NCBI GenBank assembly: GCA_044229845.1
Contig: JBGASG010000006.1
Coordinates: forward strand, 64,001 to 128,000
Direction of reading: 5' to 3'
DNA: 64,000 nt
DNA from: Candidatus Obscuribacteraceae bacterium
GTDB lineage: Bacteria > Cyanobacteriota > Vampirovibrionia > Obscuribacterales > Obscuribacteraceae
In this document: piece after piece, positions 8,845-34,918 of the stretch
How positions within the stretch are numbered: position 1 is the first letter of the stretch
Layout of the letters: each line of letters starts with the position of its first letter
The notes under the pieces: model-generated
The model's database searches: none
The model's input: the letters and a program-made list of their open reading frames with translations, nothing else
What the model was told of the DNA's origin: nothing
Translations under genes and position numbers: made by a program

Positions 8845-8976
8845 AACGAAGCCTGGCGTCGAACCACCAGCGGCACCACGAGCCTTCCAAAATCAAGTCG
8901 CGAGCCAGAGCGACGGTCAACCTACCTACAGCATGTCCGTCATTGTGTTTCTTAGCCCTGTGAGCTACGGCGAACG

Positions 8977-9347
8977 GCAAGATAAAAGGATGATTTCAAC
9001 CACCCGAAACGCGCACCACTGGCGGTGTTACACGGTTTCGCCAATGGTATCCGCGAATGCCGCATGCCTAGATGGGAAGCCCTGTCTGACTCGAACGGCA
9101 TTCGCGCATCGGTAGCGCGTTTCCGGCATCTCTTCGGAGTCTTTCTCATTCTGTCGTGGCATCGGTTTGGGCTCAGAGAATTAGCGGATTTCACTTCCAG
9201 ACGCATGTTCCTAGCTGACCCTATATGTGGTGGCATTGTGGAACAACGCGCCCCAGTGCGCGTCACTGGCTACTGACGAGCTAACTTCGCTCGAACACCT
9301 CACTCTCCGTGAGGCATGGCAAGCCGCAGGCTTGCTTCAACAATTGC
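8977..9347 (+). repeat. Conserved non-coding module with an oriT-like site; inverted copy of 12361..12730
   Basis: GCAAGATAAAAGGATGATTTCA (reverse complement contains TATCTTG^C), palindrome at 9013-9028, and CTATATGTGGTGGCATT...CTTGCTTCAACAATT are all shared. Confidence 0.85.
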
Positions 9348-9456
9348 GTGTGCGTCCGGTAGTCCACGTCGTTGGCAATTTTGCGTCGCCGTGGTTTGCT
9401 AATTGCACATGCGGCGCTGCCAGTTCGAAGCTGCGAAGAGCGCCTGCACTGAGAGT

Positions 9457-9915
9457 ATGCGAGGGCAAGGCGTGGCACGAGCAAGAAAAGCGGATAGGCA
9501 CCAAGACGGCGACGTGCTCCTGACACGGAACGAAGCTGCCGAGTATCTCGGCGTCTCTCCCAATACGTTGGCGATCTGGAGTTGCACGGGGCGGTATGAC
9601 TTACCCTTCGTGAAGGTCGGGCGGCTTGCAAAATACCAGAGGTCAACTCTCGATCAGTTCTTGCAGCGCCGCACCAAGCACTGGAACGGGACGGAAACGG
9701 GACGCGCGGACCGTCCTTCCAAGCCCCGCGAGGTTCGGTCTCAGGAAGTCGAATTCCGTGAGGTGCGGCTGGTCGATCCTCGCAGGACCGACATCGTACC
9801 GTCATCCAGCAGCGTGTTGGAGATCGTTCTACCAAGTGGTATCACTCTTCGACTACCGGGAGGATCTTCTCCAGACTTCCTTGCTTCGGTAATCGCTACA
9901 TTGGAGAAAGCGTAG
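9457..9915 (+). CDS. tnpA: IS66 TnpA-like protein with an excisionase/MerR-type HTH N-terminus
   Basis: LLTRNEAAEYLGVSPNTLAIW...PFVKVGRLAKY (Xis-like) followed by the TnpA-like tail LEIVLPSGITLRLP. Stop overlaps the tnpB start. Confidence 0.75.
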   Translation: MRGQGVARARKADRHQDGDVLLTRNEAAEYLGVSPNTLAIWSCTGRYDLPFVKVGRLAKYQRSTLDQFLQRRTKHWNGTETGRADRPSKPREVRSQEVEFREVRLVDPRRTDIVPSSSSVLEIVLPSGITLRLPGGSSPDFLASVIATLEKA

Positions 9916-10322
9916 TGTTTAATTTGTCACCATCGGTGCGGATTTTCGTTTGCACAAAGCCTATCGACATGAGGCGTTCGTTCGACGGGCTATTCGGTCT
10001 TGTTCAATCGCTAGTGCATCAAGATCCATTTTCTGGATCGCTCTTTCTCTTCCGTAGTCGACGCGGCGACTTCATAAAAATTCTCTGGTGGGACCTCGAC
10101 GGCTTTGCCATTTTTGCCAAGCGCCTCGAAGTCGGAACATTTCGTTTTCCGGAAGTGCGGTTCGTGAACGGCGAGTATGAAGCAATCGAGATGGAACGAT
10201 CTGACCTTCTCCTGCTTCTAGAGGGCATCGACACCGATTCTGTGAAGAGATTGAAGCGCTACCGCCGGGAAAGCCCGGATCGAGCCAAAAGCGCCACCCC
10301 AAAAGTACCCGCCATGCGGTGA
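9915..10322 (+). CDS. tnpB: IS66 accessory protein TnpB
   Basis: PIDMRRSFDGL, LFLFRSRRGD.IKILWWD.DG...KRLE.G.F. Confidence 0.95.
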   Translation: MFNLSPSVRIFVCTKPIDMRRSFDGLFGLVQSLVHQDPFSGSLFLFRSRRGDFIKILWWDLDGFAIFAKRLEVGTFRFPEVRFVNGEYEAIEMERSDLLLLLEGIDTDSVKRLKRYRRESPDRAKSATPKVPAMR

Positions 10323-10504
10323 GCGATCAGACCAGTGCCACGGGCTGGTACTTTCGAGAAATGCGGAGTAAAACATAATAGAATTTTCCAAGACGCTGGC
10401 CGGCAATGTCGCCACCATTGGCGGTGCAATACAGATCAGTCAGATCTAAGCTGCAAAATACGGTCCCGAGTAGTACCATATACGGTATCACTCAGGTATT
10501 TGCC

Positions 10505-12049
10505 GTGCCAAAATCCGAAGATTCCGAAAATACGCGCCTCAGAAAAGAAAATGCCCGGCTCCAAAAGTCGCTGGACCGCATGGAGAAGCAGCTCCAAGAA
10601 GCCAATGACGCCAACAAAGAGCTGCGCGCGCTCATGAAGGATCTCCAGGAAAAACTCGACATCCTTATCGTCCAATTCAAAAAACGGAATCGCAAGGACT
10701 TTGGCAACAAGACTGAACGACACAATCCGCGGCCGGCACTCGCTGTCGAATTGTCTCCTCTGACTGCTAAGGAAAAGTCGACTCCAAAACCACGCAATCA
10801 CATCAAGCACATTCTCTCGCAGAACCTTCCCCCTGAGATTGTTCCGCACACCGTTAAGCCGGAAGATGCAACCTGTCCCTACTGCATCGTTGACACCGTT
10901 TTCGTCGGCACCGAAGTGACCCACCAGTTGGAGCGCTTGACTCAAACGCTTAAACATCTGCAGCATGAGCAGGAAGTTCGGGCGTGCCCGAAGTGTAGGA
11001 AGTACATCGTCACCGCAGAAAAACCTTGTTCGCCAATTCCCGGCAGCTACGCCGGACCGGGACTGCTCGCGGACGTCTGTGTGAACAAACTTGCAGACGG
11101 GCTTCCAAACTACAGACAGGAGAAAAGATACAAACGCGAAAGTGCCACCATACCACGGTCCACTCAAAGTGATTGGATGCTGGCTGCCTCGTTTACTGTT
11201 GAGCCTCTGTACGATCTCGTTACTCGACGCCTGCTCCTTTCTCGCGTAATACAGACGGACGACAGCGAACTTAAGGTCCAGGACCGGAAGCACAAGCGAA
11301 AAATGCGCAAAGGCAAAATGACTGTTTACCGCGGGGATGAGAATCACAGGTTTGTAGCCTTCGATTTCTCTCCCGATCAAACCTTCGCCAGGAACATTGC
11401 ATTCCTCGAACAGTTTGTCGGCATCGTACAGGCCGACGCCGCAAAGGGCTTCGACAAGCTGTACGAGGATGGCACCAAAGTCGAGGCCGGTTGTAACGCC
11501 CATTCGCGCAGGAAGTACTACGAAGCGCTGGTGATTGATCCTCAAAGCTGCAACCCGATCCTGGACATCTATCACGCACTTTACGACATCGAAGCGGAGA
11601 TCAAGACACGGAGTCCTGCGGAGAAGCTGGCTGAGCGACAAGCACGATCGAAGCCACTCGTTGGGCAGCTTCACGCCCTGGTTCTCTCTCTTAGTGAGAA
11701 ATTGAACCCTAAACATCCAGTCATGCGCGCCGTCCTGTACACGCTCACTCACTGGCAGGCGCTCACTCGCTTTCTCGAAGATCCTGCCATCAATATCGAC
11801 AACAACGCCGCCGAGCGAGAAATCAAAGACTTCGTGATTGATCGAAAGAATTTCCTGTTCGCAGGCTCGGACGCTGGCGGTAAGTCGATTGCCATTCTCC
11901 TGACTCTCATTGCCTCTGCGAAGCGCAACAAGATCGACCCACGTGCATACCTCACCGACGTGTTTACGCGCATCAACTCCATGAAGACCAGCGAGCTTGA
12001 GCAGCTTCTTCCGGACCGGTGGACGCCAAACCAAAACAAAGTCTCCTGA
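10505..12049 (+). CDS. tnpC: IS66 transposase TnpC
   Basis: Coiled coil, CPYC/CPKC zinc finger, QTDDS, GCNAHSRRK, IDNNAAEREIK, RKNFLFAGS, LLPDRW. GTG 10505 is the likely start (ORF from 10406). Confidence 0.95.
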   Translation: MPKSEDSENTRLRKENARLQKSLDRMEKQLQEANDANKELRALMKDLQEKLDILIVQFKKRNRKDFGNKTERHNPRPALAVELSPLTAKEKSTPKPRNHIKHILSQNLPPEIVPHTVKPEDATCPYCIVDTVFVGTEVTHQLERLTQTLKHLQHEQEVRACPKCRKYIVTAEKPCSPIPGSYAGPGLLADVCVNKLADGLPNYRQEKRYKRESATIPRSTQSDWMLAASFTVEPLYDLVTRRLLLSRVIQTDDSELKVQDRKHKRKMRKGKMTVYRGDENHRFVAFDFSPDQTFARNIAFLEQFVGIVQADAAKGFDKLYEDGTKVEAGCNAHSRRKYYEALVIDPQSCNPILDIYHALYDIEAEIKTRSPAEKLAERQARSKPLVGQLHALVLSLSEKLNPKHPVMRAVLYTLTHWQALTRFLEDPAINIDNNAAEREIKDFVIDRKNFLFAGSDAGGKSIAILLTLIASAKRNKIDPRAYLTDVFTRINSMKTSELEQLLPDRWTPNQNKVS

Positions 12050-12115
12050 ATTTCGCTACCTCAGGAAACCACGCCCCACCTTAATTTCCTAGGACGTGAA
12101 GAACCGGACGCACAC

Positions 12116-12328
12116 CAGCCAGCCAACAAACCGGTTCTCCATTCGCTGTAAGCGTCGTTCGACAAATTGAAACTGTGAGGTCGTGGTAGCCTCGGCGCGG
12201 ACAACTATCCCGTCAAGGACCAGGGCACGAATCATCTGGCATGGTTTGACTCCGTTCGTTTTCGCCAGGCGGAGGATTTCCTCTTCCATCTCGCGAGGGA
12301 AGCGGGTACAGTACTGGGTCTTTCGCAT
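12116..12328 (-). pseudogene. Ribbon-helix-helix (MobC/CopG-like) gene truncated by IS66
   Basis: MRKTQYCTRFPREMEEEILRLAKTNG...RMENRFVGWL aligns with 26164..26559 until the IS66 right end. Confidence 0.8.
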
Positions 12329-12360
12329 TCCTTACCTCGGAACACAAGCGCGGTTGCGCG

Positions 12361-12730
12361 TAATTGTTGAAGCAAGCCTGCGGCTTGCATGCCCCACGGA
12401 GAGTGAGGTGTTCGAGCGAAGTTAGCTCGTCAGTAGCCAGTGACGTGCACGGGGGCGCGTTGTTCCAACAATGCCACCACATATAGAGTCAGTAAGCAAC
12501 ACGCACCTGGTTGTGGAATGGGCTAAATTCCTGAGCCTCCGTCTGTGTCGCGACAGAATGAGAAAGACTACGCAACGATGCCCAAAACGAGCCGCCAATG
12601 CGCGAATGCCGTTCATCGCAGACCGGCAGTACCATTGAGGTGTGCGGCATTCGCGGATAGCGTTGACGAAACCGTGTAACACCGCCGGTGGTGCACGTTT
12701 CGGGTGATTGAAATCATCCTTTTATCCTGC
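12361..12730 (+). promoter_or_regulatory. oriT-like module with a MOBP/RP4-type nic motif TATCCTG^C at 12723-12730
   Basis: GAAATCATCCTTTTATCCTGC preceded by the palindrome at 12679-12694 and next to the RHH gene. Confidence 0.55.
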
Positions 12731-12779
12731 CTCGCCTGCACGCTCGGTGATCACTGCTCTTCGCACGAAATCTGTTTAG

Positions 12780-13466
12780 CTATAAAGAAAAACTTTCACT
12801 GAGTTGACTAGCTTCTTCCGGTGTGATCCATGGCGCGTTTTCTAAAATCAGCCGACGGCGAATTTTGTAAATCTTGGGCTCAGCCTGACGGATGCGTTTA
12901 ATGACCGATTCATCAACGGAAAGCAGCCGGTCGACGAGATCCGCAGCCTGGTTGTATTTGGCAAACTTGGGAGCAAGTCCGTGATTCGCCCCCTTTACCC
13001 AATCAGGAAATATAGACGGAACTCTCTTAACCCACCGGCGCTGGTACCAGGAAGCGATGCCCTCTTCCAACACGTTCGTCTCGGCTTTATCCCGTGGTGA
13101 TAAAAGATGTACGCATTCATGGCTTAATTGCCACAAGGCTTGAGGTCGGTCGTTCAGACAGTGGCGACTGAGGCGAATCATTAGATACTTATGCCTTCCG
13201 TGTCGTCCTGTTCCCCATATCTGCATGTGCGGCGTATCCGAATCAAAATTTATCCCAGCGAACATAAACGGATAGGGGTCTAATTTCGAGCCAAAAATAG
13301 TTTCTGCTTCTTCCAGCATCACGCACAAGAAGGTCGCGAAAACATCGCTGCTCAAATTTCTCGCTCGCACCTGATGCCTAATATACGCATACGGGTCGTC
13401 GACCAAACGATTCATTGCAAATGACATCCTCCGTCCATCGTTCCCAACCTGACAGTGTACGACCAA
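12780..13466 (-). CDS. HExxH zinc metallopeptidase-like protein
   Basis: WQLSHECVHLL...LEEGIA motif. The true start may be 13427 or 13415. Confidence 0.65.
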   Translation of the reverse strand: MVVHCQVGNDGRRMSFAMNRLVDDPYAYIRHQVRARNLSSDVFATFLCVMLEEAETIFGSKLDPYPFMFAGINFDSDTPHMQIWGTGRHGRHKYLMIRLSRHCLNDRPQALWQLSHECVHLLSPRDKAETNVLEEGIASWYQRRWVKRVPSIFPDWVKGANHGLAPKFAKYNQAADLVDRLLSVDESVIKRIRQAEPKIYKIRRRLILENAPWITPEEASQLSESFSL

Positions 13467-13604
13467 TTTCGTCTTCGCCGCTCTGTCTAGCTCTTGGCAG
13501 CGCGGGTCTGATCCTCTCTACGGGCGGCAATCAGTAAAACGCACAATTTTGTGTTTTGGCGGAGACCTTGGTTAAATGAGGTTGGAACGCAATCGCTGAC
13601 GAAC

Positions 13605-16600
13605 TCAAAATCGGGCATCGTTACCGCTAAGCCGCATGAGGTATTTGCTAACGGCAGTTCTGACAAGGATTTCAGCATGCTTGTTAATGCCGAACATACG
13701 ATTGCAATGCAGGTGCACAATGTCGGAGCAAATTTCAGTAACAGGCGTAGACAACTTGCCCTCTGCAGCAAGGGACAGAAGCCTGGAGCAATAAGGATCG
13801 ATTGCCTCACGAAACTGTTGTGATAACGCGATGATTTGGCGTTGGTTCGGCGCGCACCTATCAGTTACATCCGCATCGAGAACAGCTATTATGCTGGTCC
13901 AGCTGGATCTGCAGTCGGCGCTAACCGCACGAAAGTCGTCGGACGAAAATCCTTCCACTAGCATCTGCTTGCCTGTCGTATCGAAAAGTTGGAATGATTC
14001 CAAAATCGACTTCACGGTCGCTACCGCCGCTATCAACTTATTGGATTGCGGTGAGTTAAACAAATACTTGCACACTATCTCGCTGTCACAGTAAAAGATC
14101 GATTCAACCGCATCCAACGCCTCTGGCCCGCCGTAACGCTCCACTTCGCGGTCGTAGGTCTCAACTGAATACTTGGAACACACGCCAGAATAAACCAGAT
14201 CTGAGGCACGTTCGAAGAGAGCAGGTAGCGCCACGCTGCAAACATTGGACGGTTTAACATTGAAGCGCATTCGTAAATGGTCGCATCCATCTCGATAGCG
14301 AATGAAAAACCATTTCTCTACAATATTTGTGAAGAGCTTCGATTCAAGCAAATTCGAGAAGCGCTCCACGACTTCTTCTTGCAAAACATCTGCACATTCA
14401 AGGCGGAGGTAAATCCATTCGCTTCCAGGGGGACGGGTGTAGAGCGCTCTATCGACTGCGATGTTCCTTTTGCCGTTTCTGTCGGGAGTTGGTTGACCAT
14501 GAAGTTTTTTTCGAACAAAACTAGAAACGAATTCCGTGACATAGTGCTCGGTCCCGACGTCATGCCATGTGTGGGTGTTCAAATATTCGATGAGAAGCAG
14601 CTTTCTTTTGTCGCGCTCAGCTTGCTTGAATTCTCGTCGCAGAATAGCTAGGTCGGACGAATGAGAAAGATTCAGCAGAAGGGGGTTGTCATCGTCAAAG
14701 CTCTCGGCGAGCCAGACCAAGTCCGGGATCTGATAATCTGCTTTTGCTTTCTCAAAAGTTTCCTCAAAATGCTGATCGATGTTCACCATCGATTGAATGG
14801 ACCAGCGCGCTGAGGCCAAGATAAACCTTTCGAAGGTCACTCTCGGGAGATGCACCATTTGCTCCGCGCACCAGCCCCAATTGAATGAGCTGAGCGAGAA
14901 GCAATCTTGCCAAGCTACGTCTACAAGAAACCTGATCGTATCGGGAAGAAGCGCGCGTGACAATAAGTTTCTTGTGCGAAACAATAACCTCTGTCCTGTT
15001 CGTGACCACTGCGCAAAGAATTTGCCTGACTCAATTCCTATTTCAATTTCGGATAGCGGTACGCTTGTACTACCGTGAGACGGTAAGCAGCCTGAAGACG
15101 TGCTGAAATTACACTGAAATGAGGCAAGAGCGATGTTCAGCAGTCGGGCGTTCGCCGGCCAGTAGTTTGCATCGACGATTAGGTGATCATCAGCTGAATT
15201 TGCCTCACACTCGAATATTTCAGACAATGCGTTTGAGCCGGTCTCGCTGAACAGACGCGCGAATCTTCCCATCGCTCGCCCCGCTCCATCATCACCCACG
15301 CGGGGAGAGACTAATAGTTCGAACTTGCCATCGTCAATTTCCGACTGGGAATTGGCAACAATTTGAAAAAACAAATCGACCGACAGCGGCGCGGTTGACT
15401 CGTCTAGGTCAAAAATCGACAGACGCTGAAGATCTGTATCTGAAAGCTCAACGGGGTTACCTTTGCTGGTTTGCGCAAGTTCGAATAGAAAAGCTTCACG
15501 ACTCCAACGGTCGGTTGTGTCGGTCGCTACGTACCTCTCACCATACGGGGAACCCAGCCCGAAAGTGTCACTGATCAAAGATAGCAAAGGCACCACTCTG
15601 TCAACCTGGTAACGCTGTTCGAACGCTCGGAGGTATGGTGTCAATTTTTCGTTTTTAGTTGAGCTAATTTGCACGAGCAACCTGACCAAACGTGCCAGGT
15701 CTGCCGACAATTTGGAATTCAGGCGAGCGCTTTCAAGACGCATTTGGGTGTCTATTTGAAGCGCGTTATCGCTTTCGGAATACCCCGGAACCCGAGCCAT
15801 CAGGTCTAAATAATCTCTAGGCGACACCGGCTGATTGCGGGTTGCAGATTCTTGTATGTCACGGAGAGCGCCAACTACAGGCGGTGTCTCGACCGAATTC
15901 GCGCCAAAATACGATATTACGTAGTCACAGGGACTCTCGGTGTTCAGTGGAAACCGCAAGGTGGATATCAAAAATCCTTCTTCGATTAGCTCATCAACTA
16001 ATCCGTCAGAAACGCTGCTGGCGACGCCGAACGCGTTGGAGACAGACTCACTTAGTGTCTGGAAAGAGGCAGCATTGGAACGGCAGAGACTTAAAAGATA
16101 TCGCACTGGTTCTGTGGCTCTGATGTGTGTGGTCTGCTGCTGACCACTGGTCAAGTCGCGATTTGACCAAACTCGATTATCTTGGATTGCGATCTCCGGA
16201 TCGGTCACGTAAGACAGTTTTCGCCTAGACTGGCGGTCGGTTTCTAACTCTGAAATTACTGCGCCGAGGCAGGACATGTCCACTCTAAGCTTCGGCACGA
16301 CTTCTCCGGTACGCCTGATGCTGGTATCACTGCCAAAAGTCGCGAGGTCGACGCCTGCAAACAATCCGTACGGAGTTGGACGAGTCCCCATTCGTCTAAA
16401 ATACTTGAATGACTTATCAATAGCTTCTTCGCTGTCCTTTGTGGTGAATGCAAAATAGAGAGATGGGCTGCCTATTGCTAAGGCCGTTTCGAAAAGTTTC
16501 TGATGAGATTGGGGTGGTGAGCACATCATGCCGATTTCAAACGGCAGCAAAGGAGTGCGAACAAGCAAAGGTCCGACTTGTTCGTACTGAATGCTTGATG

Positions 16601-16622
16601 CGAATTTGAGATTCTGTCGCAT
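13605..16622 (-). CDS. lanB: Class I lanthipeptide dehydratase (LanB), glutamylation plus elimination domains
   Basis: 1005 aa with LLVRTPLLP, RMGTRPTPYGLFAGV, GRAMGRF, HLPRV, WFFIRY.D...HLRMR, YDREVERYGG and HLHCNR. Confidence 0.95.
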   Translation of the reverse strand: MRQNLKFASSIQYEQVGPLLVRTPLLPFEIGMMCSPPQSHQKLFETALAIGSPSLYFAFTTKDSEEAIDKSFKYFRRMGTRPTPYGLFAGVDLATFGSDTSIRRTGEVVPKLRVDMSCLGAVISELETDRQSRRKLSYVTDPEIAIQDNRVWSNRDLTSGQQQTTHIRATEPVRYLLSLCRSNAASFQTLSESVSNAFGVASSVSDGLVDELIEEGFLISTLRFPLNTESPCDYVISYFGANSVETPPVVGALRDIQESATRNQPVSPRDYLDLMARVPGYSESDNALQIDTQMRLESARLNSKLSADLARLVRLLVQISSTKNEKLTPYLRAFEQRYQVDRVVPLLSLISDTFGLGSPYGERYVATDTTDRWSREAFLFELAQTSKGNPVELSDTDLQRLSIFDLDESTAPLSVDLFFQIVANSQSEIDDGKFELLVSPRVGDDGAGRAMGRFARLFSETGSNALSEIFECEANSADDHLIVDANYWPANARLLNIALASFQCNFSTSSGCLPSHGSTSVPLSEIEIGIESGKFFAQWSRTGQRLLFRTRNLLSRALLPDTIRFLVDVAWQDCFSLSSFNWGWCAEQMVHLPRVTFERFILASARWSIQSMVNIDQHFEETFEKAKADYQIPDLVWLAESFDDDNPLLLNLSHSSDLAILRREFKQAERDKRKLLLIEYLNTHTWHDVGTEHYVTEFVSSFVRKKLHGQPTPDRNGKRNIAVDRALYTRPPGSEWIYLRLECADVLQEEVVERFSNLLESKLFTNIVEKWFFIRYRDGCDHLRMRFNVKPSNVCSVALPALFERASDLVYSGVCSKYSVETYDREVERYGGPEALDAVESIFYCDSEIVCKYLFNSPQSNKLIAAVATVKSILESFQLFDTTGKQMLVEGFSSDDFRAVSADCRSSWTSIIAVLDADVTDRCAPNQRQIIALSQQFREAIDPYCSRLLSLAAEGKLSTPVTEICSDIVHLHCNRMFGINKHAEILVRTAVSKYLMRLSGNDARF

Positions 16623-16626
16623 GGCT

Positions 16627-17892
16627 TTATGACACCATCATTAGCCGATCCCACATCGGCTCTCTATTTGTTGTTGCTGCCAGCAAAGCCAATGCAACGC
16701 CAGAAGCGCCCGTTACAAAGCTGGGATCATCAACTAAGTTGTCCCCGAGGTCAGGCTCCCGAAATCCAAATTTGTATTCGGATCGAAATTCTTCTAATAG
16801 TCTATCGATCAGTGAAATGGAGTACATACTTGGTACCGATGTCTCATTGCAAAAGCGTAATGCTATTAGCAATCGCCCCGCGAGCCCGTGGCACAGTGTT
16901 GCTCCATTTTCCGAGTCAAGTATTCTCGGATTGGAAAGAAGTTTTTCAATCCCCATAATGGCGAAAGATTTGTGGTCTGCGCAAGACAATGCTTTTCCCG
17001 CTAACCAAATCGACCTCAGGACGCCGGGTCCACCGTAACACCAGCCGTCGTGACTCATTTCGCGAAAGTCTTGATTCCGTGGCACTTTATATGGCCATCT
17101 GATTGAATCTTCCGATTTGACCGCAAGACTTTGAAGCCAACAAGCGAGCATGTCGATCGTTTCGCAAAGGCCATCCGCATCGACTCCTTCAATGCGAGCA
17201 ATTGAGAGGGAAGCGAGCACGCCGGGCATGCCGTGAGCAAGCCCACAGTTGATTAGCCCACTTTCGTCCGCCACGCGATCAGATAGAAAGTTTGTGAGTT
17301 TTTGCGGCAAAAATGGACCTGGAAAACGCACGAGCTTGATAAGCGTGTCTACTGAGTGGACTAATACATTCTCAATCGAACCAGCCGAGCGCCTTGCTAT
17401 CAGATAACGCATCATTCCGCTCAATCCACTCACCACATCATAATCAGATTGGTCGATATTGGTCACAGCAGAGAGGTCCCGAATCTTTTTAGACCTCAAA
17501 AAACATTCGGAACTTATTTGCAAATCCGTGCTTTCCAAAAACCTCTTGTGTCGGTTCGGACCGTCGTGCAGCATGAGTGCCAACAGCCCCAGTTGCGACA
17601 ATCCTTTAGATAGTGCACCACTCCGACATGACACCGTGTGAAAAATCGCCGCAGAGAAGAACTTCTCCGCAAAGAATTCGTGTTCCCAATCCCCCCTAGT
17701 GTAATAAAGAAATTGATAGAGCACTGCCATAACAGCCAGGTCAAAGGGATTCACACGCCATTGGGTTCCGCGAGTCGAAATGATCGCGTGGTTGCCTGAT
17801 AGCCTGCGCAGACGGTCCGCGACTGATGAAGCTACGGCTATGGCTCGGTCAGCTTGTTCTCCCGAGCAAACACTTTTCCATTCAGCGTTCAT
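16627..17892 (-). CDS. lanC: Lanthionine cyclase (LanC)
   Basis: YDVVSGLSG, GLAHG, WCYG and LCHG zinc-ligand motifs. Confidence 0.95.
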   Translation of the reverse strand: MNAEWKSVCSGEQADRAIAVASSVADRLRRLSGNHAIISTRGTQWRVNPFDLAVMAVLYQFLYYTRGDWEHEFFAEKFFSAAIFHTVSCRSGALSKGLSQLGLLALMLHDGPNRHKRFLESTDLQISSECFLRSKKIRDLSAVTNIDQSDYDVVSGLSGMMRYLIARRSAGSIENVLVHSVDTLIKLVRFPGPFLPQKLTNFLSDRVADESGLINCGLAHGMPGVLASLSIARIEGVDADGLCETIDMLACWLQSLAVKSEDSIRWPYKVPRNQDFREMSHDGWCYGGPGVLRSIWLAGKALSCADHKSFAIMGIEKLLSNPRILDSENGATLCHGLAGRLLIALRFCNETSVPSMYSISLIDRLLEEFRSEYKFGFREPDLGDNLVDDPSFVTGASGVALALLAATTNREPMWDRLMMVS

Positions 17893-17916
17893 GTAAAAGC
17901 CGAGTCCATAATTGCC

Positions 17917-18402
17917 TCATACACGGGTGCACTTGACTGTCGAAGGTTTGGGTCCTGGACCTGGTCCTCCGCCTGGTCCTGGTCCTGGTCCTGGTCCTGG
18001 TCCCGGTCCTGGTCCTGGTCCTCCGCCTGGTCCTGGTCCAGGTCCCGGACGCTTTGTCTTTTTGCAACATCCTTTAGCACTATCCTTAGTGCAAGTTGCT
18101 GGTGTCGAACAAGGGTGTCCAGGCACTTTCGAAATTGGTGGACATCCTTTTGGAAAAAATCCACCGGGAGGTAGCCCGACCGCTGCGAGAGAATCGCTGC
18201 CTATGCCTGCCCTGTTCAATCTTTTTACTTGTATGTCGAACATGTCAGCCCTTGTGCTGTCGTTCGAACCCACTCGCGTCAACTCAGTCTGATATGGAAA
18301 CACGCTGTTTAACAGACTGCCTCCCAATGTTAGGTTTAGAAAGCCGCAAGTTAAAGACCTGACCCACGAGGCAAAGCGTCCTCGCTGCGATTGTTTGTTC
18401 AT
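17917..18402 (-). CDS. Putative lanthipeptide precursor (LanA), 161 aa, with a (Gly-Pro)n tract
   Basis: Directly upstream of lanC. DMFDIQVK resembles the class I FxLD/FDLDV leader motif. The core is rich in Cys/Ser/Thr (GCPPIS..PCSTPATCTKDSAKGCC..STVKCTRV). Confidence 0.7.
   Translation of the reverse strand: MNKQSQRGRFASWVRSLTCGFLNLTLGGSLLNSVFPYQTELTRVGSNDSTRADMFDIQVKRLNRAGIGSDSLAAVGLPPGGFFPKGCPPISKVPGHPCSTPATCTKDSAKGCCKKTKRPGPGPGPGGGPGPGPGPGPGPGPGPGGGPGPGPKPSTVKCTRV
17951..18048 (-). repeat. Hexamer tandem repeat (GGACCA)n encoding Gly-Pro
   Basis: About 16 units reading (TGGTCC) on the plus strand, interrupted twice by GGG codon runs. Confidence 0.9.
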
Positions 18403-19004
18403 TTTGTGTTTACTCCGGAAATAGCAAGTGGAATGGGTATTTCTGATTTGACAGGGAAGGCGAGATCCGCCGAATCCACTGAGGATGTCGGTTCGGCAAC
18501 TTTTGGTTCAATGGCAGCTTCGGGATATCCGATGAGATTTCTGTCAGTCACGCGATCGGTTTCGGGACTTAGGAATGTTGCGTTTCTCGCGCTATACACT
18601 CTGCTTGACGTAAGTCCTAAACCACTTCGAGAGTGCACATAGTATCCAGCGTAGCCAAACTCAGGTTCTTGACCGCTCGACTGAAGTTTGATGGCGTTGC
18701 CATACGAATCGAACGCTTGCTGCAGTGCTATCTGTCCGCTTGTATTCGTCAGCTCTCTAACGGAAAGGTCAAGGTCCGCCGTGTAGTAGTAGTTACCCGC
18801 TGCGACCGCCTGCCCGTAAGCAAACAGATTGGTGGTCACAGAGCCCGACTGATCCCTGACTGCCGAGGGCTGAGTGTTGTCCGGACACCAAATCAGCTGT
18901 TTAGTGCTTGTGATACTGCTCGCCACCGTCTCGACGATCTTTACTGTCTTCCCGAACGGATCGACCGTTAATTTGGTGTCATTTCCCATTCCCTGATAAG
19001 TAAT
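18399..19004 (-). CDS. Degenerate orphan Rhs core cassette without a DPxG site or clear toxin tip
   Basis: In frame from the core (ITYQGMGNDTKLTVDPFGK..KIVETVASSITSTKQ). Eroded motifs: ATFLSPE for GRFxSRDP and NLIGY. The stop overlaps the lanA start (ATGA). Confidence 0.75.
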   Translation of the reverse strand: MTYQGMGNDTKLTVDPFGKTVKIVETVASSITSTKQLIWCPDNTQPSAVRDQSGSVTTNLFAYGQAVAAGNYYYTADLDLSVRELTNTSGQIALQQAFDSYGNAIKLQSSGQEPEFGYAGYYVHSRSGLGLTSSRVYSARNATFLSPETDRVTDRNLIGYPEAAIEPKVAEPTSSVDSADLAFPVKSEIPIPLAISGVNTK

Positions 19005-19135
19005 CTTTTCGAAAGCTGCGCATCGCCGGTGGTGCTATGGTGCACAGGACGCGGCAATCGGGCACGAACGATTGGTGTCCGATTTTCACTGCAGACGCAG
19101 TGTAGACGGCCCTCCGAAAGTGGCTTATCACGGAA

Positions 19136-20344
19136 TTAGCTTGTACTGGGATTTCTGGGGTTAAACAACCTTAGAAACTCTTTGGTGATCTTTTCCATAG
19201 GCTCACGGAGCCTCTCGATATCAACTATGATGTAACCGAATGTGGTGTCGTTTTTCCCAGAATGATTTGCCAGCTTTTTCAGAACGACGTACGAAAAATC
19301 CAGTCGCTCGGCCATCGTCAAAAAAGTCCGTCTCAAGTCGTGCAACACGAAGGGGCAAGCAGCATCTTCAATAATTTTGTCGATGGCATAACCGCAGTCT
19401 ACCATGTGGCTCTTGCCACCTCGTCCAGGAAAAACAAATTCTGATGTTCCGCGCTCCGCATAGCGGCGAGCCAACAGGTCTTCCAGAAACGCACTGAGCG
19501 GCAACCGATGTTCTTTGTTGTTCTTCGAAACCTCCGCGCGCACGGTCAAAACTTTCGCGGCGAAGTCGATATTATCCCAGCGAAGTGTAGCGGCTTCGTT
19601 CCGGCGCAAGCCGGTGAGCAGCAAGAGCACCAGATAGTCTTTCACCTTCTGCTGCGGGAGCGACATGACCGCGTCGTACCAGGCGGGTAACTTGTGGTCT
19701 GGTATCAGCGTTTGACGTCTGCGCTCTTGATACCACTGGCGGTTATGCGAAAGTTTGGTGACCGGGTTCGCAGTGATGATCGGTTTGCCTTCAATCTCGT
19801 AGTTAGCGGCGGCAAAGTTCAACAGTGTACCGAGCACGTGCATGACGGTATTTGCTTGCGCCTCGCCGGACGTACCCTGGCGTGTCGGCTTGCGCAAATC
19901 GGCATGACGCTGCTGCACCATTTCGCGGGTGATGGCTGCCACCGGCAGATCTACCCAGTCACCGAGACAACGCGGAATGAGATATCTATAGGTACGTTTT
20001 GTGTTGGGCTTCAGGTTGCGTACCGAGAGGTAGTGTTCCAAGACCTCCTGCAATGTGACGCCCGCCACCTTCCTTTTAGCTCTCTCCGCCGTTGGATCTT
20101 TTCCGGCGGCCATCTGCGCCAGGAGCTTGAGCGCTTTTGCTCTGGCGGCGGTAGCTGTCAATCTGGTGTGGTCGCCGAGGGTAATCCTGCGCACGACGCC
20201 ATTGACTCGGGCTTCGACTATGTACGTCTTGCTGCCAGGCGTGACGCGCAGCCCGAATCCGGGCAACGCGCTGTCGCGATAGAAGACCTGCCCTTTCTCT
20301 GGAAAAGGCAATGTAGACACGAATGTATTTGTTAGTTTCGGCAT
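19136..20344 (-). CDS. Tyrosine integrase, paralog 2
   Basis: TGLRRNE, HDLRRT, NHS..TFGY; start MPKLT at 20344. Confidence 0.95.
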   Translation of the reverse strand: MPKLTNTFVSTLPFPEKGQVFYRDSALPGFGLRVTPGSKTYIVEARVNGVVRRITLGDHTRLTATAARAKALKLLAQMAAGKDPTAERAKRKVAGVTLQEVLEHYLSVRNLKPNTKRTYRYLIPRCLGDWVDLPVAAITREMVQQRHADLRKPTRQGTSGEAQANTVMHVLGTLLNFAAANYEIEGKPIITANPVTKLSHNRQWYQERRRQTLIPDHKLPAWYDAVMSLPQQKVKDYLVLLLLTGLRRNEAATLRWDNIDFAAKVLTVRAEVSKNNKEHRLPLSAFLEDLLARRYAERGTSEFVFPGRGGKSHMVDCGYAIDKIIEDAACPFVLHDLRRTFLTMAERLDFSYVVLKKLANHSGKNDTTFGYIIVDIERLREPMEKITKEFLRLFNPRNPSTS

Positions 20345-27684: not shown

Positions 27685-30600
27685 TTATTCAATGCCATAA
27701 GTGTCCATGCATTCCTGGACGCAATCATCACGTGTTTCCTCGGCTTGTCTTAGCTTAGCGCGTTTCTCATTGCCTTCGGGCATTGAGTCGACCTCTTTCA
27801 GATCAATTCGGTACCAATCATCGCAATCCTTGCAGCAATCGTCAAACGGATCCTTGTCCGGTTTTTGTTCTGGAGGATCATCGTGCCCGTCTGGCGGAGG
27901 CGGTCCTCCTCCTGCTCCGCCCATAATGACGGTCTCATCTGTCGGCGTCACGGGTGGACCGTCATCTTCGTCCTCGTCCTTCGGGCATGGATTAGGTGGT
28001 TGCGGATTAGGCGGTTCAGGCACAGGTCCCGGAGGCTGACTCTGATTGAATTGCTGCCAGAGCCATAGCAAAATGTCCATTAGGTCCATTTTTCTGATTA
28101 CGGCATTACCGCTTGGGTCCCTCCACATAGTCGGGCGATTCCCAACATATCGATATAGATTGAGGCCGCCCCTTTCTCCGATGCGATCGCGCGAAATGAA
28201 TCTACCGATCTTCGCGTTGTAAGCCCGCGTTCGAGTAAAGTTGAGCCCACTACGGGCATGCAGATAGTAACCGGCGAACTGAAAATCGCTGTCCTGCATA
28301 CTCTCAAGCGTCTTAGTCCTGCCAAAGGGATCAAAGCTATAAGAAGCCTGCACATCGCCGCTGTCGTCCGTCATTGTCCAGACGGAGCCAAGATGGTCCT
28401 TGTTGTAGAAATAGCTTGTTGAGTTATCGATCTGCCCGCGCGAGAAAAACTGCTTGGAGGCGTTTCCGCTGCCGTCGCGCTCTTCGCACCGAGTACTACC
28501 TGACCAAATATGCTGCTTGGTGCTGGTGACGCTGCTCGCAACGGTCTCCACAATTTTGACCATTCTTCCGAATGGGTCATATGTGAAAGCCGAGTTATTT
28601 CCCGAACTGGGATAAGTAATCTGAATTAGGCGGTTTTCGGCGTCCCATGCGAAGGAATTCGTTCCGTCGCTGGTTAAATTGCCGTTGTCGTCGTAGGTCA
28701 GCGTTTGGCTGCCAGCGCCCACCACTTCTAGCTTGTGGGTATTTGTTGTTGTACCGCTTCCGCCGCCGGCGGTGGCGCTGACGTTGACACTGTTACTCCC
28801 CGACGACAGCGCCGCGTTCCCAGAGAAATTCTGAGATGTCGTCATATCGACGGCATTTCCTGCGACAGTCACCGGCAGTACCGGTCTGTCGGTGTTTCCT
28901 TGGAAGTGGGCATTGCCACCGGCAGAAATGCCTGTCAGTTCGTTGACCGTATTGAAGGTCGCTTGAGAGGCCCCAATGTTCTTGCTCAGGGCAATCGTCT
29001 CGGTAGCGCCGCCACTCAGCGATTTGGCATACGTGGTCGCGTTTTTGGACGCAGAGATGAGGTTGACGACCGAGACACCAGATGTCGGTGTCACAGCAGT
29101 GGCGGACACACTTATCCCTTGGAGGTCCGTGTCGGCATTGATATTAGTCGCCAGTCCTGAGGCAATCGAATTCAGGGTGTCGCCGCTCTGGACCGTGTAA
29201 TTGACGGCTTTAGAGCCGCCGGACAAGCCGGCGTCGTAGACCGTTATTGTGAGTACATTGCCTGTTGTTTTGGTCCCACCAATGACAGCGGTCACCGTGC
29301 CGTTCGCTGGAAGGTCCCAGAGAATGGTTTCGGTTGCGCTGGTACTTCTCGACGGAAGGTAGGTGGTAGCATTTCGCGAGACAGATGTGACTGTTAGCAC
29401 AGTTCCTGATGATGAGGCAGAAACGCCTACAGCTTTCAGATCCGAGTCGGCGTTGAGTGCCGATGCGAATCCGCTGGTTATGGACGTGAGGTTGTCTCCG
29501 CTTTGAACTGTGTACGAAACGCCCTTAGACCCGCCGGATAGTCCGGCATCGAAAACCGTCAGAGTTAAGACATCTGCTGTTGTCTTGCTTCCGCCGATGA
29601 GGGCGTTGACGGTGCCATTCAAGCTTGGCCCGAGAGCGACAGTTTCCGTACCAGCGCCCGTGACCGACTTCGTGAAGGTCGTGACATTTGGCGAGAGTGA
29701 CTGAATGGCGATCACCGGTCCATTGGATGTCGCAGTGATGCCGGCTCCCGAGAGACTCCCGCTTCCGTTGATGGATGCCGTCAGAGCCGTGGCAATCGAG
29801 GTCAGCGTGTCGCCACCCTGGACTGTGCGGCTAACGCTCGTAGAACCACCGCCGAGGGCTGGATCATGAACGGTTATCTGAACGACGTCGCTCGTGGTTG
29901 GCGTGCCCCCGATAGTGGCGTTATGCAGAGCTGCATTCACGCCGAGGCTGGCGGTTTCTGTTGAACCACCGCTCAAGCTGGTCGCGAAGGTAGTCACGTT
30001 AGGAGACTTCGAGCGCAGCGTCACCGTGGTCCCGCTCGAAACAGCATCGATTCCAACCGATTGGCAATCGGAGTTCGCCGTTATCGTTGCAGCCAGATTG
30101 GCGGCAATCGTCGTTAGCGTGTCTCCAGAGAGCACTGTGTAAGCGACCGCTTCCGTACCTCCGCTCAATCCGCTGTCAGTTGCGGTGACGGTGATGACGT
30201 CACTAGTGGTTTTGCTGCCGCCGATCACGAGATTCTGGACCTGGCTCGTTTGCACGTCAGTCCGGTTGGCTGCGGAGTCGTAGGAGAAGAAGTGCTGGTC
30301 CGCGAATGGCGCGGGCAACACGCCCTTACCACTTACCGCTGCCGTCAGTTGACCTGCAGCGTCGTAATCCAGACCGAATCCCACGTGCCGGGTTTTCTGC
30401 TGCTGCATCCAGCGAGTGATTTGCCCCGTTGGATCTTGCGCATAGTTGAATTGAGACAATGCTTGCGAATTCGGATCAAGATTCCTTATCTCGCGTAAGC
30501 GTTGATCTTGATCGTTGCCGTACCAATCAAATGCAGTTGTTTGACCATTCGGATATGCGATACTGGCTAGTCGGGATTGTCCCTTTGAGACCCCGACGCC

Positions 30601-33600
30601 ATCATCTACATAGGTGAAGTCGAATTGTCCCAACTCGTTTGTTTCTGAGACGACGCGAGACATGCCGTCATAGACCCAATCGATCGAATTGTTTGTACCA
30701 TCTATAGAGCGGTTCGTCGTTCTACCCAATTCGTCATATTCAAAAGTGATATCAGAATTTGGAATTACCGTGTTCGTGATGGTTGCTAGTCTGCCACCAC
30801 CGGTGATGGGTGGATCGGTGGGATCCGTGATGTAATCGTTGTATTCATATTTATATGAGCCCCAACCATTGCGTGCCTCAATCAGGCGGTTGTAGTGGGT
30901 GTCATACGAATTGAGCACAGTAGAAGTCGCGTTGACTGCATCAACATACTGCAGCGAATTCAGAGTACCGTCCCAAATCCGATAATACTGCGTCTCCTGT
31001 CCGAGCGCATCTCGCTTGATTGCAAGGGCATTGCGATTTGTCTCCCAGATATATTTTGTGGTTGCATTGTCTTCCAAGACCTTCTCGATGACACGACCTT
31101 GCAAGTCGTGATTCCAGGTTGTTGTATGCCCGGCAGCATCGGTGAGTTCGCTGAGCGAACCACAAGAGCACCAGGTGTAGGATGTTTTCCTGCCTAGCGG
31201 ATCAATCTCGAATGCGAGCTGGTCCATGTTGTCGAATGAGCGTTGTGTGGTTCTCCCGAGACGATCTATGAAGAAGATCGCGTCAAGGTCTTGGAACACT
31301 GTCTGCTGCGTGGTCTGATCAGGAAATGTCGTTTTGACCAAACGATCCATGTCATCGTAGTCAAACGACAATGTGTAACCTTCCGCATCCGTGCTTGACG
31401 CGAGCGTTCCGTTTTCATTCAAGACCAGGGTTGTGACATCGTCTTCTTGAAGCGGACCGGTTATTTTTGTCAGGAAGCCATAGGCGACCGGCGACAGGGA
31501 GACGGTTACGCCGCCGGTTACCGCCTGGCTATAGCTCGTCGCGTTGACCGAAACAGACTTGATGGTCAAGTCTGCACCACTTGCACTCGCCGAAACGCCG
31601 AGGGTCTGCAGATCTGTATTGCCATTGATATTGGAAGCCAATGATGCGGCGACGTTGCTAGCCGTTTGTCCCGGCGTAGCGGTGTGAGATACCGTCTCCG
31701 AGCCACCAGGCAGATCCGGATCAGACACGGTGATGCTTGCCTGGTTGCCCGAGCTGATGGTGCCGCCTATGGTGGCATTCTCCGTTGACGTGTATTCGTA
31801 CGTCGTCACATTAGAAAGGGGATCCGTGACAGAGGTGAGCTGCCCGAAGACATTGTAGGTCATGTCGGTCTCTTGTCCTGAGCCGTCCATTTTTGTCAGC
31901 GGCAGATGTTGGCTGTTGTATGTGAATGTCCCAAGGACGAAATCATTGCTGTCGCGCGTTTCGTGAATTTCCTCCAAATCAATATTGTTTGCGGCATACT
32001 CGTAGGAAATCTCGCGCCCGGCGGGATGAGTAGTTAGCCCAGAACGCACCGACTCCCCAGCCCAAGTGACAAAAGATCTTGTTACCGCTCGCAGAGAAGG
32101 AGCAATTATGGGAACGACTGAACGAGTCATCCGTTAGCATGTATGCAACTTTCTGAGCGATCGTTTCCAGCGTGTCTCCACTGACGACAGTGTACGAGAA
32201 GACTGGGTAGGTAGGTGGATAAGCCGAGTGCAAGTAGACAATGTCGCCGGCAGTTGGTGTGCCGCCAAAAACTATGTTCACGGGAGAGCGGCTCCAGTCC
32301 TGTTCCAGCTCCGCTGTGAAAGTCTCGGTAGCGCCGCCTGATGTCAGAGCCTGCGGATAACTGTAATAGACATCTTCGGGAGTTACAACCAGGTAGCCGT
32401 CGTCCATCTCAGCGTAAATTCCACGCTTGAGAAATTCGCTGTCGTTGTTGACCAGGTCGCCCAATTCTTCGAGTATATCGTTGGCGGTGTCGCCGCTCTG
32501 CACCGTATATGATACCGTTTTCACTGCGCCCGGCAGCAGGTTGTTCCAGATCCGCACCGAGAGAATATCTCCTGGTGTGATGGTGCCCGTAATCGAAAAA
32601 CGCGCTTTCAAATTATAGTCATTTCGTTGCGTGATTGCGCTCGGCCGGTTTAGTGTGTCGTAGAAGCCTGAAGAGATTTGATTCGGGTACGTGTATGCAA
32701 TCTGAGACTCAAGCGGATTCTTTGAAGCACGTGCAATTGGCGCAACATTAGCTGAGAAACCCTCAGCAAACCACGTTGTCTTGCGGCAGTGCGAAAATAT
32801 CCGGTTGGTTGGATCATTTGGGTAGCGTGCCATGGCCTCGCGGTCCCAGTAGTGCGTTTCATTTTCATGATCCAGAGTGTGCTCAATAACAGATGTGGTG
32901 CCATCAGGATAAGCGAAATTCAGTCCGCGTCCTGGGTACACATAGCCGGTCGAAATCGTGTAACTGTCAAAATCAGTCGTACCATACGGCGTCGTCAAAG
33001 ACTCGCAGAAAGCGCTTCCGACGTCATATGTGAAAGTTGATTCAATGCCAACGGCGTCAGTAATTGCCTCCAGAAAATAGTTGCCATCGTAGGAAAAGGA
33101 GCAGTCTCTGCCAAATGGATCGTGGATCGCAGAGATCAGGAAGAAGTCCGGGTCGAGCGGGTTATTTGATGCATGATCAAACGTGGTCACATTTCCGTTA
33201 GCATCCGTCACCGACTGGATTCGAAAGTCGACATCGTAGGCGACGGTTGCACTATTGCCTTGTGGATCAATCACTTCTGTCATGAAGTAGTTGTCGTTGC
33301 CGTCATCCAGATCGAAGACTTCAATCGAGCCGTCCGGTAATTCGCGGTGATAGACACCGGCACTTGGAACAGTCAATTCCGCTACGGACATGACATCTGG
33401 ATCGTAAGGATCACCTGAATTTCCTGTGTAGTCATGCGGCTCTACGCCACCGTCGCGCAAGTGTACCGTTGCGTTATTTGAACCGTCTATGGAGATCCAA
33501 GACACCCAGTTAGTAGACCAGTTCGGTCCAAGATTGGAGAACGTAAACGTAGCAGGTTGCTCAATTTCATTCTGGCTGTAATTGACCGCAAATCTCATGT

Positions 33601-34918
33601 CAGGACCGATTGGACAGTTATAGGACAGTGGCTCATCACGAATGTTCAACTCTGCTTGCATGGTCCATGCGGTTGCCACCGCCATGCCACCACATCCGCA
33701 GTTGGGACCGGTGCATTGATTCGGATGGTCTGAGCCTTTGTTTTCGTTACTTGTTTGCATGTAGCCTTTGCCGAATATATTCGCGGCTACAGAATCTGAA
33801 ACAGGCTCCCAACCAGCAGGCAATTCTCCTGCCGGCACAAGAAAGAATCCATCACTCTCCGAATCTATAGCTCGCTTGCTTACCCAAAGTTGCCCGTTTC
33901 GATCAAAGGTCGGATCTTCAATATGGAACTTGCTGTCCTTCAACTCAGTTAGCGCGCCATAGTGTCCTGCACGCCAATGCATAACAGCCGGCAATAACAC
34001 GTCAGCTCCAGGGGATCGCTTAGCAATCTGCATATTCAAGCCGCCCTTCTGGGCCAGCTGCTTAACCTCGAGCAACGAATTGCCCTTGCTGGTCGACTTT
34101 GCTTTGCGAATAAATGAATCGGCTGGCACCGGAGTGCCCTTAAGTTCCATCAGCGTTTGTACGGCAAAGGGTCCGCATCTAAATGCATCACCTGGCGCTT
34201 TCTGCATGACCTGGACCGCATCGCGTGCTGCGGAAACTCTCTCACTGGATGAACCCACCATCGGACGATTTCCAATTTCAGCCAGTCCGACTTTCATTTC
34301 GTCCAATCTGCCAAGCATCCCCTCTAAGAAGAGAAGTTCTGAAAGAGCACGTTGAGCCAGTTGAGATTGCTCCTTTCCTTTTGCACTCTTCGACTGCTGC
34401 CATGAGGTATTCAGCAGGGCAAGTGCCTCGCTGATATAACCTGTTTCTCGGCGGAGCAATCCGACGTTCAATGCAAGCGCAGCATTCCAGCGCGAGTTAG
34501 GATGCGTATCCATGAATGAAGTAATTGCAGATACGTCTTCCGGGTCATTCTTCGCCTTGAATGCAATCAAAGCCTTCGCAAGCTCCGCATTTTCTCCGGC
34601 CACTCGTGATCCAGTCATTGCCACCAGTGGTTCGGAGAAGGACCTCGATCTAAAAATTTCGGCATCAGTAGGAGCTGGTGACAGTACAAATTGATGTTTG
34701 CGCGCAGTCGACATGGCAGCTCGTTCCTGGGCGCTGACAGCGCCAATAGGATTGTGAGGCATCTTCTTTGGTGCATGTCCGTGCGGCGCTCGCCTCATCG
34801 GATGAACCGGCTCGGCTGCCATTACCGGCAATACCGCCTGGGTGAAAACAACCAGGATTGACATAAGGCTACTCATGCCTTTTTTCAGAGTCTGGTTATT
34901 CTTGGAAGTGCGAAACAT
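27685..34918 (-). pseudogene. Giant Rhs/YD-repeat protein (signal peptide, C39 peptidase-like domain, YD shell, inserted repeats, core, Cys-rich tip), split by a frameshift near 32025
   Basis: Overlapping ORFs 31979..34918 and 27685..32130. Motifs RCGPFA..HW..GHY..IEDP, DPxG/YD repeats, NKDHLGSV, GRFISRD and DPSG. Confidence 0.88.

Follow-up and report, generated by a model that had tools for sequence, protein, structure and literature searches.

Rhs proteins are cages for enzyme toxins, and class I lanthipeptides are products of small free precursors with their own exporter. Here we describe a locus where the two meet, in a 64,000-nucleotide (nt) stretch of DNA from Candidatus Obscuribacteraceae bacterium (contig JBGASG010000006.1; G000:C3:64001-128000 in our numbering of genomes and contigs). 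This whole stretch, hereafter the window, belongs to a genome of 5.16 Mb that is 88% complete and is found in sludge, biofilm and bioreactor metagenomes (20 of 24 runs among those listed; 11 studies). An initial annotation of the window had proposed that a lanthipeptide operon, in the third of three Rhs core-tip cassettes, replaces an Rhs toxin tip. Our comparison with related genomes suggests that in this bacterial family class I lanthipeptide enzymes probably use the C-terminal tip of an Rhs protein as precursor, and that the window holds what appears to be a derived, split and immobilised copy of that arrangement.

Class I lanthipeptide systems (NisA/NisB/NisC; MibB; PDB 4wd9, 6m7y, 5ehk, 9g04, 2g02, 8byk) resemble this locus in having a full-length LanB with glutamylation and elimination domains, a separate zinc-dependent LanC and, in part, a precursor with an FNLD-type motif ahead of a Ser/Thr/Cys region. 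The FDIQV of the window is a variant of the FNLD of nisin, and the FDLDV and YDIDA found in two relatives (G090 and G073) fit the same type. Such systems differ from the window, which has no exporter (LanT) or leader protease (LanP), common though not invariable parts of such systems, among the 52 open reading frames (ORFs) scanned. Their precursors differ too: the candidate in the relatives is the last 75-110 residues of an Rhs protein, behind its autocleavage site, and the candidate in the window is a gene of 161 amino acids (aa) that overlaps an Rhs core fragment.

The other point of comparison is the Rhs polymorphic toxins, exemplified by Photorhabdus Rhs1. They share with our loci a YD-repeat shell with a conserved core, which in the third cassette of the window is eroded, a variable tip after the cleavage motif and a downstream partner gene; in Photorhabdus Rhs1 the Asp of the PxxxxDPxGL motif is the catalytic one (PMC8636562). 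As with orphan core-tip modules, our loci also have extra core-tip modules downstream of the main rhs gene. Our loci differ in that the tip resembles the precursor of a ribosomally synthesized and post-translationally modified peptide (RiPP) and has no enzymatic toxin fold, with modifying enzymes in the immunity-gene position; in the window, moreover, the motif has decayed and the extra modules sit on integrase elements whose attachment (att) site lies inside the core. Because the third cassette has neither an intact cleavage motif nor an immunity gene, we would assign it to the class I lanthipeptide-type systems and not to the Rhs toxin-immunity kind. We did not find the Rhs-lanthipeptide combination in the literature searched, which excluded most subscription papers and all supplements, and a mention in a genome-mining table is possible; the accessible part of PMC8600333 does not mention Rhs.

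The third cassette contains the following features, in the order in which they are read:

18399..19004, minus strand: degenerate Rhs core, an open frame of 201 codons, with the shell end conserved to about residue 140, an eroded protease plug and a 21-residue tail
18462..18491, minus strand: decayed autocleavage motif PTSSVDSAD-L, with PxxxxD retained and the invariant Gly changed to Asp
18399..18416, minus strand: GGAG ribosome-binding site (18413-18416) and ATGA stop/start overlap (18399-18402)
17917..18402, minus strand: LanA-like precursor of 161 aa, with a 53-aa extension, FDIQV (18226-18240), a Pro-Gly repeat (17950-18048) and a terminal STVKCTRV
16627..17892, minus strand: LanC cyclase, with D152, H220, C285, C334 and H335 corresponding to NisC D141, H212, C284, C330 and H331
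13605..16622, minus strand: LanB dehydratase, full length with both domains (PF04738, 369 bits; PF14028, 157 bits)

Profile matches and gene order thus bear out the lanC and lanB genes that the initial annotation had placed after the precursor. Aligned with NisB, the window LanB is matched at R83, R87, T89, D121, R154, R464, R786, R826 and H961, which we take to be the essential NisB residues. For LanC we compared the NisC residues given in PMC7296275; the equivalent of NisC R280 is not retained. lanB and lanC are each single-copy in the genome. A 33-nt inverted repeat at the start of lanC (I22) was judged a chance occurrence from its length.

The initial annotation had suggested a search for LanB or LanC homologues beside rhs genes and would have taken their constant absence there as part of a refutation. 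They do occur there, in four relatives, and in these the Rhs tip is itself the precursor candidate. LanB is present in 13 of the 107 genomes of the order (12 besides the window's), all in one family; we found no further LanB in 297 genomes of the class outside the family, or in 400 genomes of the phylum at E 1e-60, and a single-protein LanB scan of genome contigs gave no match. We inspected the surroundings of all 12 other family loci. In G036, G090 and G073 lanC-lanB is preceded on its own strand by a full-length Rhs gene, with gaps of 143, 89 and 172 nt; in G022 such a gene precedes lanB, again on the same strand, with a gap of 140 nt. These Rhs proteins (about 1,840-1,885 aa; transglutaminase, DUF6531 and RHS domains) retain the YD-repeat shell with its core and the DPxG cleavage motif, and by gene layout lanC/lanB occupy the usual position of the immunity gene. 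Each of these genomes has only 4-7 Rhs cores. Elsewhere in the family, the G070 gene is a copy of the G073 gene cut by an insertion sequence (IS) and otherwise identical; the 7.3-kb contig of G004 carries a lanC truncated at its 5' end and shows no Rhs; G026, G066 and G093 have no Rhs near LanB; the G009 contig begins inside lanB; and in G035 an IS separates lanB from an Rhs fragment 4 kb upstream, which we did not count as a neighbour.

In a LanB tree (FastTree, 79 rows), the window, G004, G022, G036, G070, G073 and G090 form one clade (SH-like support 100), with the other six family LanBs outside it. Five of the seven members (the window, G022, G036, G073 and G090) lie directly behind an Rhs core, and the link between rhs and lan genes appears to be ancestral in this clade. 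A label-shuffle test over the 13 family rows was not significant (87/500), because G004 and G070 fall inside the clade. As an outside comparison we took the best 75 of 459 and the best 75 of 580 candidates from two collection scans; among these 150 LanB loci, an Rhs core occurs only at three that repeat G073 and G090. Removing the five loci that repeat family members left 145, of which 96 hold at least 3 kb upstream, and none of these 145 best-scoring loci has an Rhs core beside it. A LanC profile search placed about 15 further proteins, known without genomic context, near the Rhs-adjacent LanCs in a poorly resolved LanC tree. We discarded a sigma-70 gene that seemed to link G004 to the window locus (26% identity, the weakest of eight matches).

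The tips behind the DPxG motif in the four relatives are 75-110 aa long, versus a median of 143 for others. We compared them with 52 tips from 11 genomes, leaving out the window's third core, three incomplete matches and one duplicate and keeping one near-identical pair. The lan-associated tips are enriched in Ser+Thr (fractions 0.16-0.22 vs a median of 0.116, n=52; p=0.0015) and in Cys (0.04-0.11 vs 0.022; p=0.018). In G090 the autocleavage site runs directly into a leader-like sequence (DPLG|LFDLDVD), followed by CPSGATCK, an Asp-Gly repeat and a last Cys; the G073 tip consists of a linker, DLYDIDAQ, a Ser/Thr/Cys region and a Pro run. The G036 and G022 tips have 12 and four Cys. The pattern [FY]D[LI][DQ][VA], defined after seeing the tips, occurs in two of the four lan tips and in none of the 52 others. 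When the flanking loci were scanned in all six frames with a looser pattern, the only motif-plus-Cys candidates in G090 and G073 were the Rhs tips, and there was none in the G022 or G036 flanks; the same scan recovered both free class I precursors of G120 (L032:8950-10130), which have FDLDL leaders, one of them with many TC repeats, and lie ahead of lanC-lanB. No free precursor was found near the lan genes of the four Rhs-lan relatives.

In all four relatives the interval from the Rhs stop to the following lan gene contains a strong hairpin of 11-14 pairs (z -2.5 to -4.3); the window has no such hairpin. In nisin, a hairpin between lanA and the following genes acts as a precursor-enzyme attenuator. 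The Rhs-lan hairpins fit either such an attenuator or a plain terminator.

Given the observed gene layout, motifs, intact enzymes and phylogenetic clustering, we consider it probable that class I lanthipeptide enzymes in this family act on the C-terminal Rhs tip as their precursor. Several observations weigh against this. The intact cases number only four and are related by descent, not independent; G022 gave no LanC match (in an 87% complete genome), and G004, whose LanB is closest to that of the window, has no Rhs beside it. The leader pattern is post hoc, and a strict F[DN]L[DN] occurs in one of four lan tips versus 0 of 52 (p=0.07); the G036 and G022 tips have no recognisable leader motif; and Cys- and Pro-rich tips are frequent in this family where there are no lan genes, 15 of the 52 reaching the lowest Cys fraction of the lan tips. 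As for the hairpins, two of which have U-tracts, they may be simple terminators, in which case lanCB would be uncoupled from rhs. As for the window, the Ser+Thr fraction of its LanA is not raised (0.11 from M54), BLASTP of this LanA against the G090 tip gave no significant match, and local alignments with it do not single out the lan tips. Transfer between Rhs types must be assumed, the window core being of the C39/LysM type and those of the relatives of the transglutaminase/DUF6531 type, and a 100-kDa LanB must reach a tip that ends up caged. The use of the tip as precursor is read from the gene layout and sequence of unannotated assemblies.

The 161-aa LanA-like gene of the window carries the leader-like FDIQV at residues 55-59 (context DMFDIQVK) and, after M54, six Cys and 12 Ser+Thr. 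Motif and Cys occur together in just two short ORFs of the genome; this one is the better candidate, and the other resembles a shadow frame. In global alignments against it, the G073 and G090 tips rank first and second of 38 (z 2.9 and 2.7), and the order of parts is the same in all three. Protein searches returned three matches for this LanA, all in Pro-Gly low-complexity sequence, and one, in a repeat, for the G090 Rhs end; neither they nor the Atlas yielded relatives of LanA or the tips, which is not evidence of novelty, and no family matched the Rhs tips or the window LanA. All four single-base variants within the Pro-Gly repeat fall at third codon positions of the LanA frame. A 91-codon frame over the precursor (17889-18164, minus strand; Asp-Gln repeat), whose TGA overlaps the lanC ATG, is probably a shadow, because this wobble pattern favours the Pro-Gly frame. 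The hydrophobicity of the 53-aa extension, read as a signal peptide, is 1.4 versus 2.2 for the rhsN signal. The LanA N-terminus has a stretch (GRFAS...LNL) that resembles the end of another eroded Rhs core, a reading that was rejected (hidden Markov model (HMM) score -1.3 bits; 328/500 shuffles as good).

The initial annotation correctly described the third cassette as starting at the core like the others: it begins at att 19006, with three mismatches to the copies at 23125 and 28622, and in the same ITY reading frame. The core is also eroded as described, scoring 21.6 bits on TIGR03696 (cut-off 32.5) versus 62.9-74.6 for the other four window cores; on an HMM built from the family it reaches 85 bits. 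Of 58 conserved columns it retains 40, versus 47-58 in 20 other cores, with the losses mostly in the last 40 residues. Relative to these 20 cores, synonymous sites are saturated (proportion of differences, pS, 0.71-0.88), with a nonsynonymous proportion (pN) of 0.40-0.47. The statement that this core has no DPxG site or tip holds only in the literal sense. The Gly kept in 57/57 other cores is Asp here and the motif has decayed, but its position is recognisable as PTSSVDSAD-L and a 21-residue tail follows: P172 and Asp177 align to positions invariant in 16 cores, the Asp of the first motif aligns to Glu148, and an 11-position position-specific scoring matrix locates the decayed motif (50/5000 shuffles equally good). 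A tail HMM on the cleavage region was not significant (144/2000 shuffles). An earlier idea that both catalytic Asp residues had become Glu was dropped, as larger alignments keep Asp177. AlphaFold2 was uninformative, giving a plug pLDDT below 50 for this core and likewise for the intact core 2 control.

The core tail ends at a TGA that overlaps the precursor ATG, and this ATGA, already seen in the initial annotation, is real: the junction is covered without a single difference or gap by contigs from 4/4 runs of four studies, although this DNA may itself come from two of these runs, which rules out an assembly error. The GGAG ahead of M1 gives -6.1 kcal/mol, versus -4.0 for M54. Since it lies inside the last core codons, the precursor would most simply be made as a free, translationally coupled peptide. 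A promoter and terminator scan was uninformative (8 and 11 sites versus 6.2 and 10.3 expected).

How the window copy arose can be read in more than one way. It is unlikely, in our estimate, that it is a decaying pseudogene of an Rhs-LanA fusion, in a family whose system is real, with a one-base frame break and an accidental ATGA and GGAG. The fused state of all four relatives would agree with such decay, as would two frames that are open over 37 codons and one base apart, the decayed cleavage motif, the missing integrase of the element (below) and a host rhs gene that is also in two frames. However, lanB and lanC are uninterrupted over 4.3 kb with their active-site residues kept, the core has stayed open for 201 codons despite synonymous sites saturated against 20 cores, and it differs from a working core by many motif changes rather than by one. 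We are inclined to read the window as a working split form of the Rhs tip-LanA, with intact LanB and LanC and a free precursor.

Less plausible still is that the lan operon is ordinary passenger cargo behind a dead core, its precursor never having been an Rhs tip, and that the adjacency in the relatives reflects one old insertion. The elements of the window do carry cargo that looks unrelated (the HExxH gene below), the guanine-cytosine content of the lan region is below that of the genome (0.49 vs 0.55), and the lack of a significant match between the window LanA and the relatives' tips, the Rhs-free G004 locus and the terminator-like hairpins all point the same way. But one LanB clade would have to have landed behind two different types of Rhs core, G090 and G073 would have no precursor other than the leader-bearing tip, and an FDLDV exactly at the G090 cleavage site is improbable by chance (0/52 other tips).

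Finally, the initial annotation had proposed a -1 slip fusing the core to the precursor, and a programmed slip at ACA AAA UGA, by which part of the product would be a core-LanA fusion and the shell would carry the modified peptide once the cassette is joined to rhsN, is very improbable: a GGAG lies 7 nt upstream, a P-site AAA after A can re-pair one base back with UGA in the A site (as in IS and dnaX frameshifting), and the product would resemble the architecture of the relatives, but the 37-codon core/LanA overlap has no canonical X XXY YYZ heptamer, structure downstream of the junction is no better than shuffles (z -0.5, -0.7), a run of four A is too short for transcript slippage, the GGAG suits ordinary initiation, ATGA overlaps are common (83 of 538 adjacent gene pairs in the genome), the junction is seen in one strain only, and a fusion would probably be unable to release its tip because the cleavage motif has decayed. 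A single-tRNA A-AAA slip here is weakly supported.

We propose the following sequence of events for the tip-as-precursor arrangement. LanB would bind the leader motif in the nascent Rhs tip before the shell closes and dehydrate its Ser/Thr residues with glutamyl-tRNA, LanC would close thioether rings, and the modified tip, released within the shell through autocleavage by the Rhs aspartyl protease, would then be ready for delivery. Tentatively, then, Rhs containers may deliver a cyclised lanthipeptide instead of an enzyme toxin, the shell serving as carrier and the aspartyl protease performing the release, with LanC/LanB replacing the immunity gene and an integrase element that targets the rhs core moving the unit between Rhs types as it would other toxin tips. 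In the lineage of the window, such an element would have come to carry the tip-plus-enzymes unit after a core fragment that belongs to another Rhs type. This fragment would have kept its open frame and att site as an att-bearing arm and lost the cleavage motif, and the former tip would have become a separately initiated, translationally coupled LanA of 161 aa, modified as a free peptide. Later insertions would have pushed the cassette to third place, and its integrase would have been lost in an IS66 rearrangement. Cassette 3 would be back in frame with rhsN only after excision of the two upstream elements, and at present it would be expressed by read-through from integrase 2 or from an unseen promoter. 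A RiPP cluster under present rhs operon control, as the initial annotation had it, is at odds with the third place of the cassette, 9.6 kb beyond the active att, and the tip-less shell of that annotation, picking up a free peptide as cargo, found no support.

Integrative mobilisable elements can restore the gene into which they integrate by carrying a replacement 3' end. The elements of the window resemble these in having a tyrosine integrase (elements 1 and 2), an att site in a coding gene, a replacement 3' end, a nic-like motif and an RHH-like gene, with no relaxase found in a search limited to PF03432; they differ in targeting the rhs core, so that integration swaps the toxin tip, and in forming tandem arrays at several loci of one genome. 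The features that bear on them are:

27685..34918, minus strand: host rhs gene of the Peptidase C39/LysM type, in two overlapping frames, with the active att at 28607-28622
19136..20344, minus strand: tyrosine integrase of element 2, immediately upstream of cassette 3
19020..19035, minus strand: arm motif GCACCAC-N3-CG-R-TGC, on the element side, about 30 nt ahead of the att core
18991..19006, minus strand: att core of cassette 3, with 12 nt the same as in the att cores 23125 and 28622, in the frame of rhsN
12780..13427, minus strand: HExxH (HECVH) protein of an unnamed family, beginning about 180 nt after lanB
12329..12745, minus strand: shared non-coding element module, with the nic-like TATCCTGC at 12723-12730 on the plus strand
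12116..12328, minus strand: RHH-like gene, cut by the IS66 end at 12115, 61% identical over 72 aa to the 131-aa copy at 26164-26559
9348..12115, plus strand: IS66-family element with terminal inverted repeats and no target duplication

On the minus strand, the host rhs gene is followed by att 28622, core-tip 1, a partner gene, the module, an IS110 and an integrase (element 1), then by att 23125, core-tip 2, a partner gene, the module and an integrase (element 2), and then by att 19006 and cassette 3. The arm motif is frequent genome-wide and informative by position only: it stands ahead of seven element-side att sites in the genome and at none of the three rhs-side sites shown. Rhs cores lie at comparable loci on five contigs (C1, C3, C13, C18 and C22), with close integrases on four, and of 24 loci with close integrases in relatives, 12 are followed by an Rhs core within 1.5 kb. 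Because of this array layout, the arm motif and the linkage of integrase and Rhs core, we infer that each element integrates inside the rhs core and supplies a new in-frame 3' end, in keeping with the element model of the initial annotation. Contigs from four runs contained no excision joints between att sites, contigs being assemblies that drop rare variants.

Elements 1 and 2 each have an integrase and flanking att sites, and element 3 has its left att and module, with the integrase and distal att missing. Because its RHH-like gene is cut by an IS66 element without target duplication, element 3 appears to have lost its integrase; the C1 copy of this IS66 element has an 8-bp duplication. The shared module and an RHH-like gene, here truncated, do follow the lan genes, in line with the initial annotation. 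Of its labels, the RHH assignment scores under the Pfam cut-off, and origin of transfer (oriT) goes back to a presumed resemblance to the IncP nic motif (TATCCTGC), which is present in six of the seven module copies found. The PF03432 search gave no match in the 88% complete genome; it was the one relaxase family searched. The HExxH gene, also single-copy and correctly placed after lanB, had been counted in the pathway, which its relatives do not bear out. Homologues (33-49% identity) occur in 12 of 106 genomes, 10 of them without LanB, and in the two LanB-bearing genomes they lie on contigs other than that of lanB; in the Atlas the protein clusters at 0.97 with proteins that have no Pfam, the nearest named ones being zinc peptidases at <0.9. 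Because its homologues are unlinked to lan genes, we would regard it as separate, unrelated cargo.

Other features of these loci deserve mention. The frame break of the host rhs gene (31979-32130) falls in a stretch about 30 codons short of the C1 paralogue, in two overlapping frames seen in the assembly sequence only. The gap between integrase 2 and the att core (19007-19135, minus strand) has a fold more stable than shuffles (z -2.6) and may contain arm sites or a terminator that limits read-through. In element 1 the gene in the immunity position (27241-27678) has no Pfam or NCBIfam match; by eye it is presumably like a Clp N-terminal domain. A second, inverted rhs array (2466-9347) has a partial rhs body, two core-tip cassettes and one integrase, and is joined to the first by the IS66 element; C22 has a similar inverted junction. 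The first ORF of the IS66 element (9403-9915) has an excisionase-like HTH_17 domain and an IS66-type C-terminus, with five related copies in the genome. The C1 rhs locus (G000:C1:1048432-1059103) has a more distant integrase (48%) with some 10 kb of other cargo behind it; by eye, two paired genes in this cargo are nucleotidyltransferase-like and small membrane effector-like. Near the lan genes of relatives we found MFS/HlyD/OEP genes (G036) and a convergent S41 peptidase (G090, G073 and G004), the latter beside lanB and a candidate only for leader removal. Upstream of transglutaminase-type Rhs genes, small lipoprotein-like and membrane-protein genes recur (L012:5595-6666, L009:2258-3385, L028:19405-19899, L033:18645-19133); they are possible export or accessory factors, and the G036 pair has no Pfam match. 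The same family also has LanC-domain frames of 1,051-1,101 aa (L211, L212 and L227; G099 and G097), probably class II LanM enzymes.

If the reading of the Rhs tip as a lanthipeptide precursor is true, it would connect two systems that have until now been investigated apart from each other, and RiPP biosynthesis would gain a new design for both precursor and delivery. Chemical tailoring of an Rhs payload would then be possible before caging or while it takes place. The reading would also account for lanB/lanC clusters without a visible precursor, as one hidden in the last part of a 1,850-residue gene would escape genome-mining tools built on short ORFs. To this the window would add that site-specific elements can move, and then uncouple, a unit made of a tip and its enzymes.

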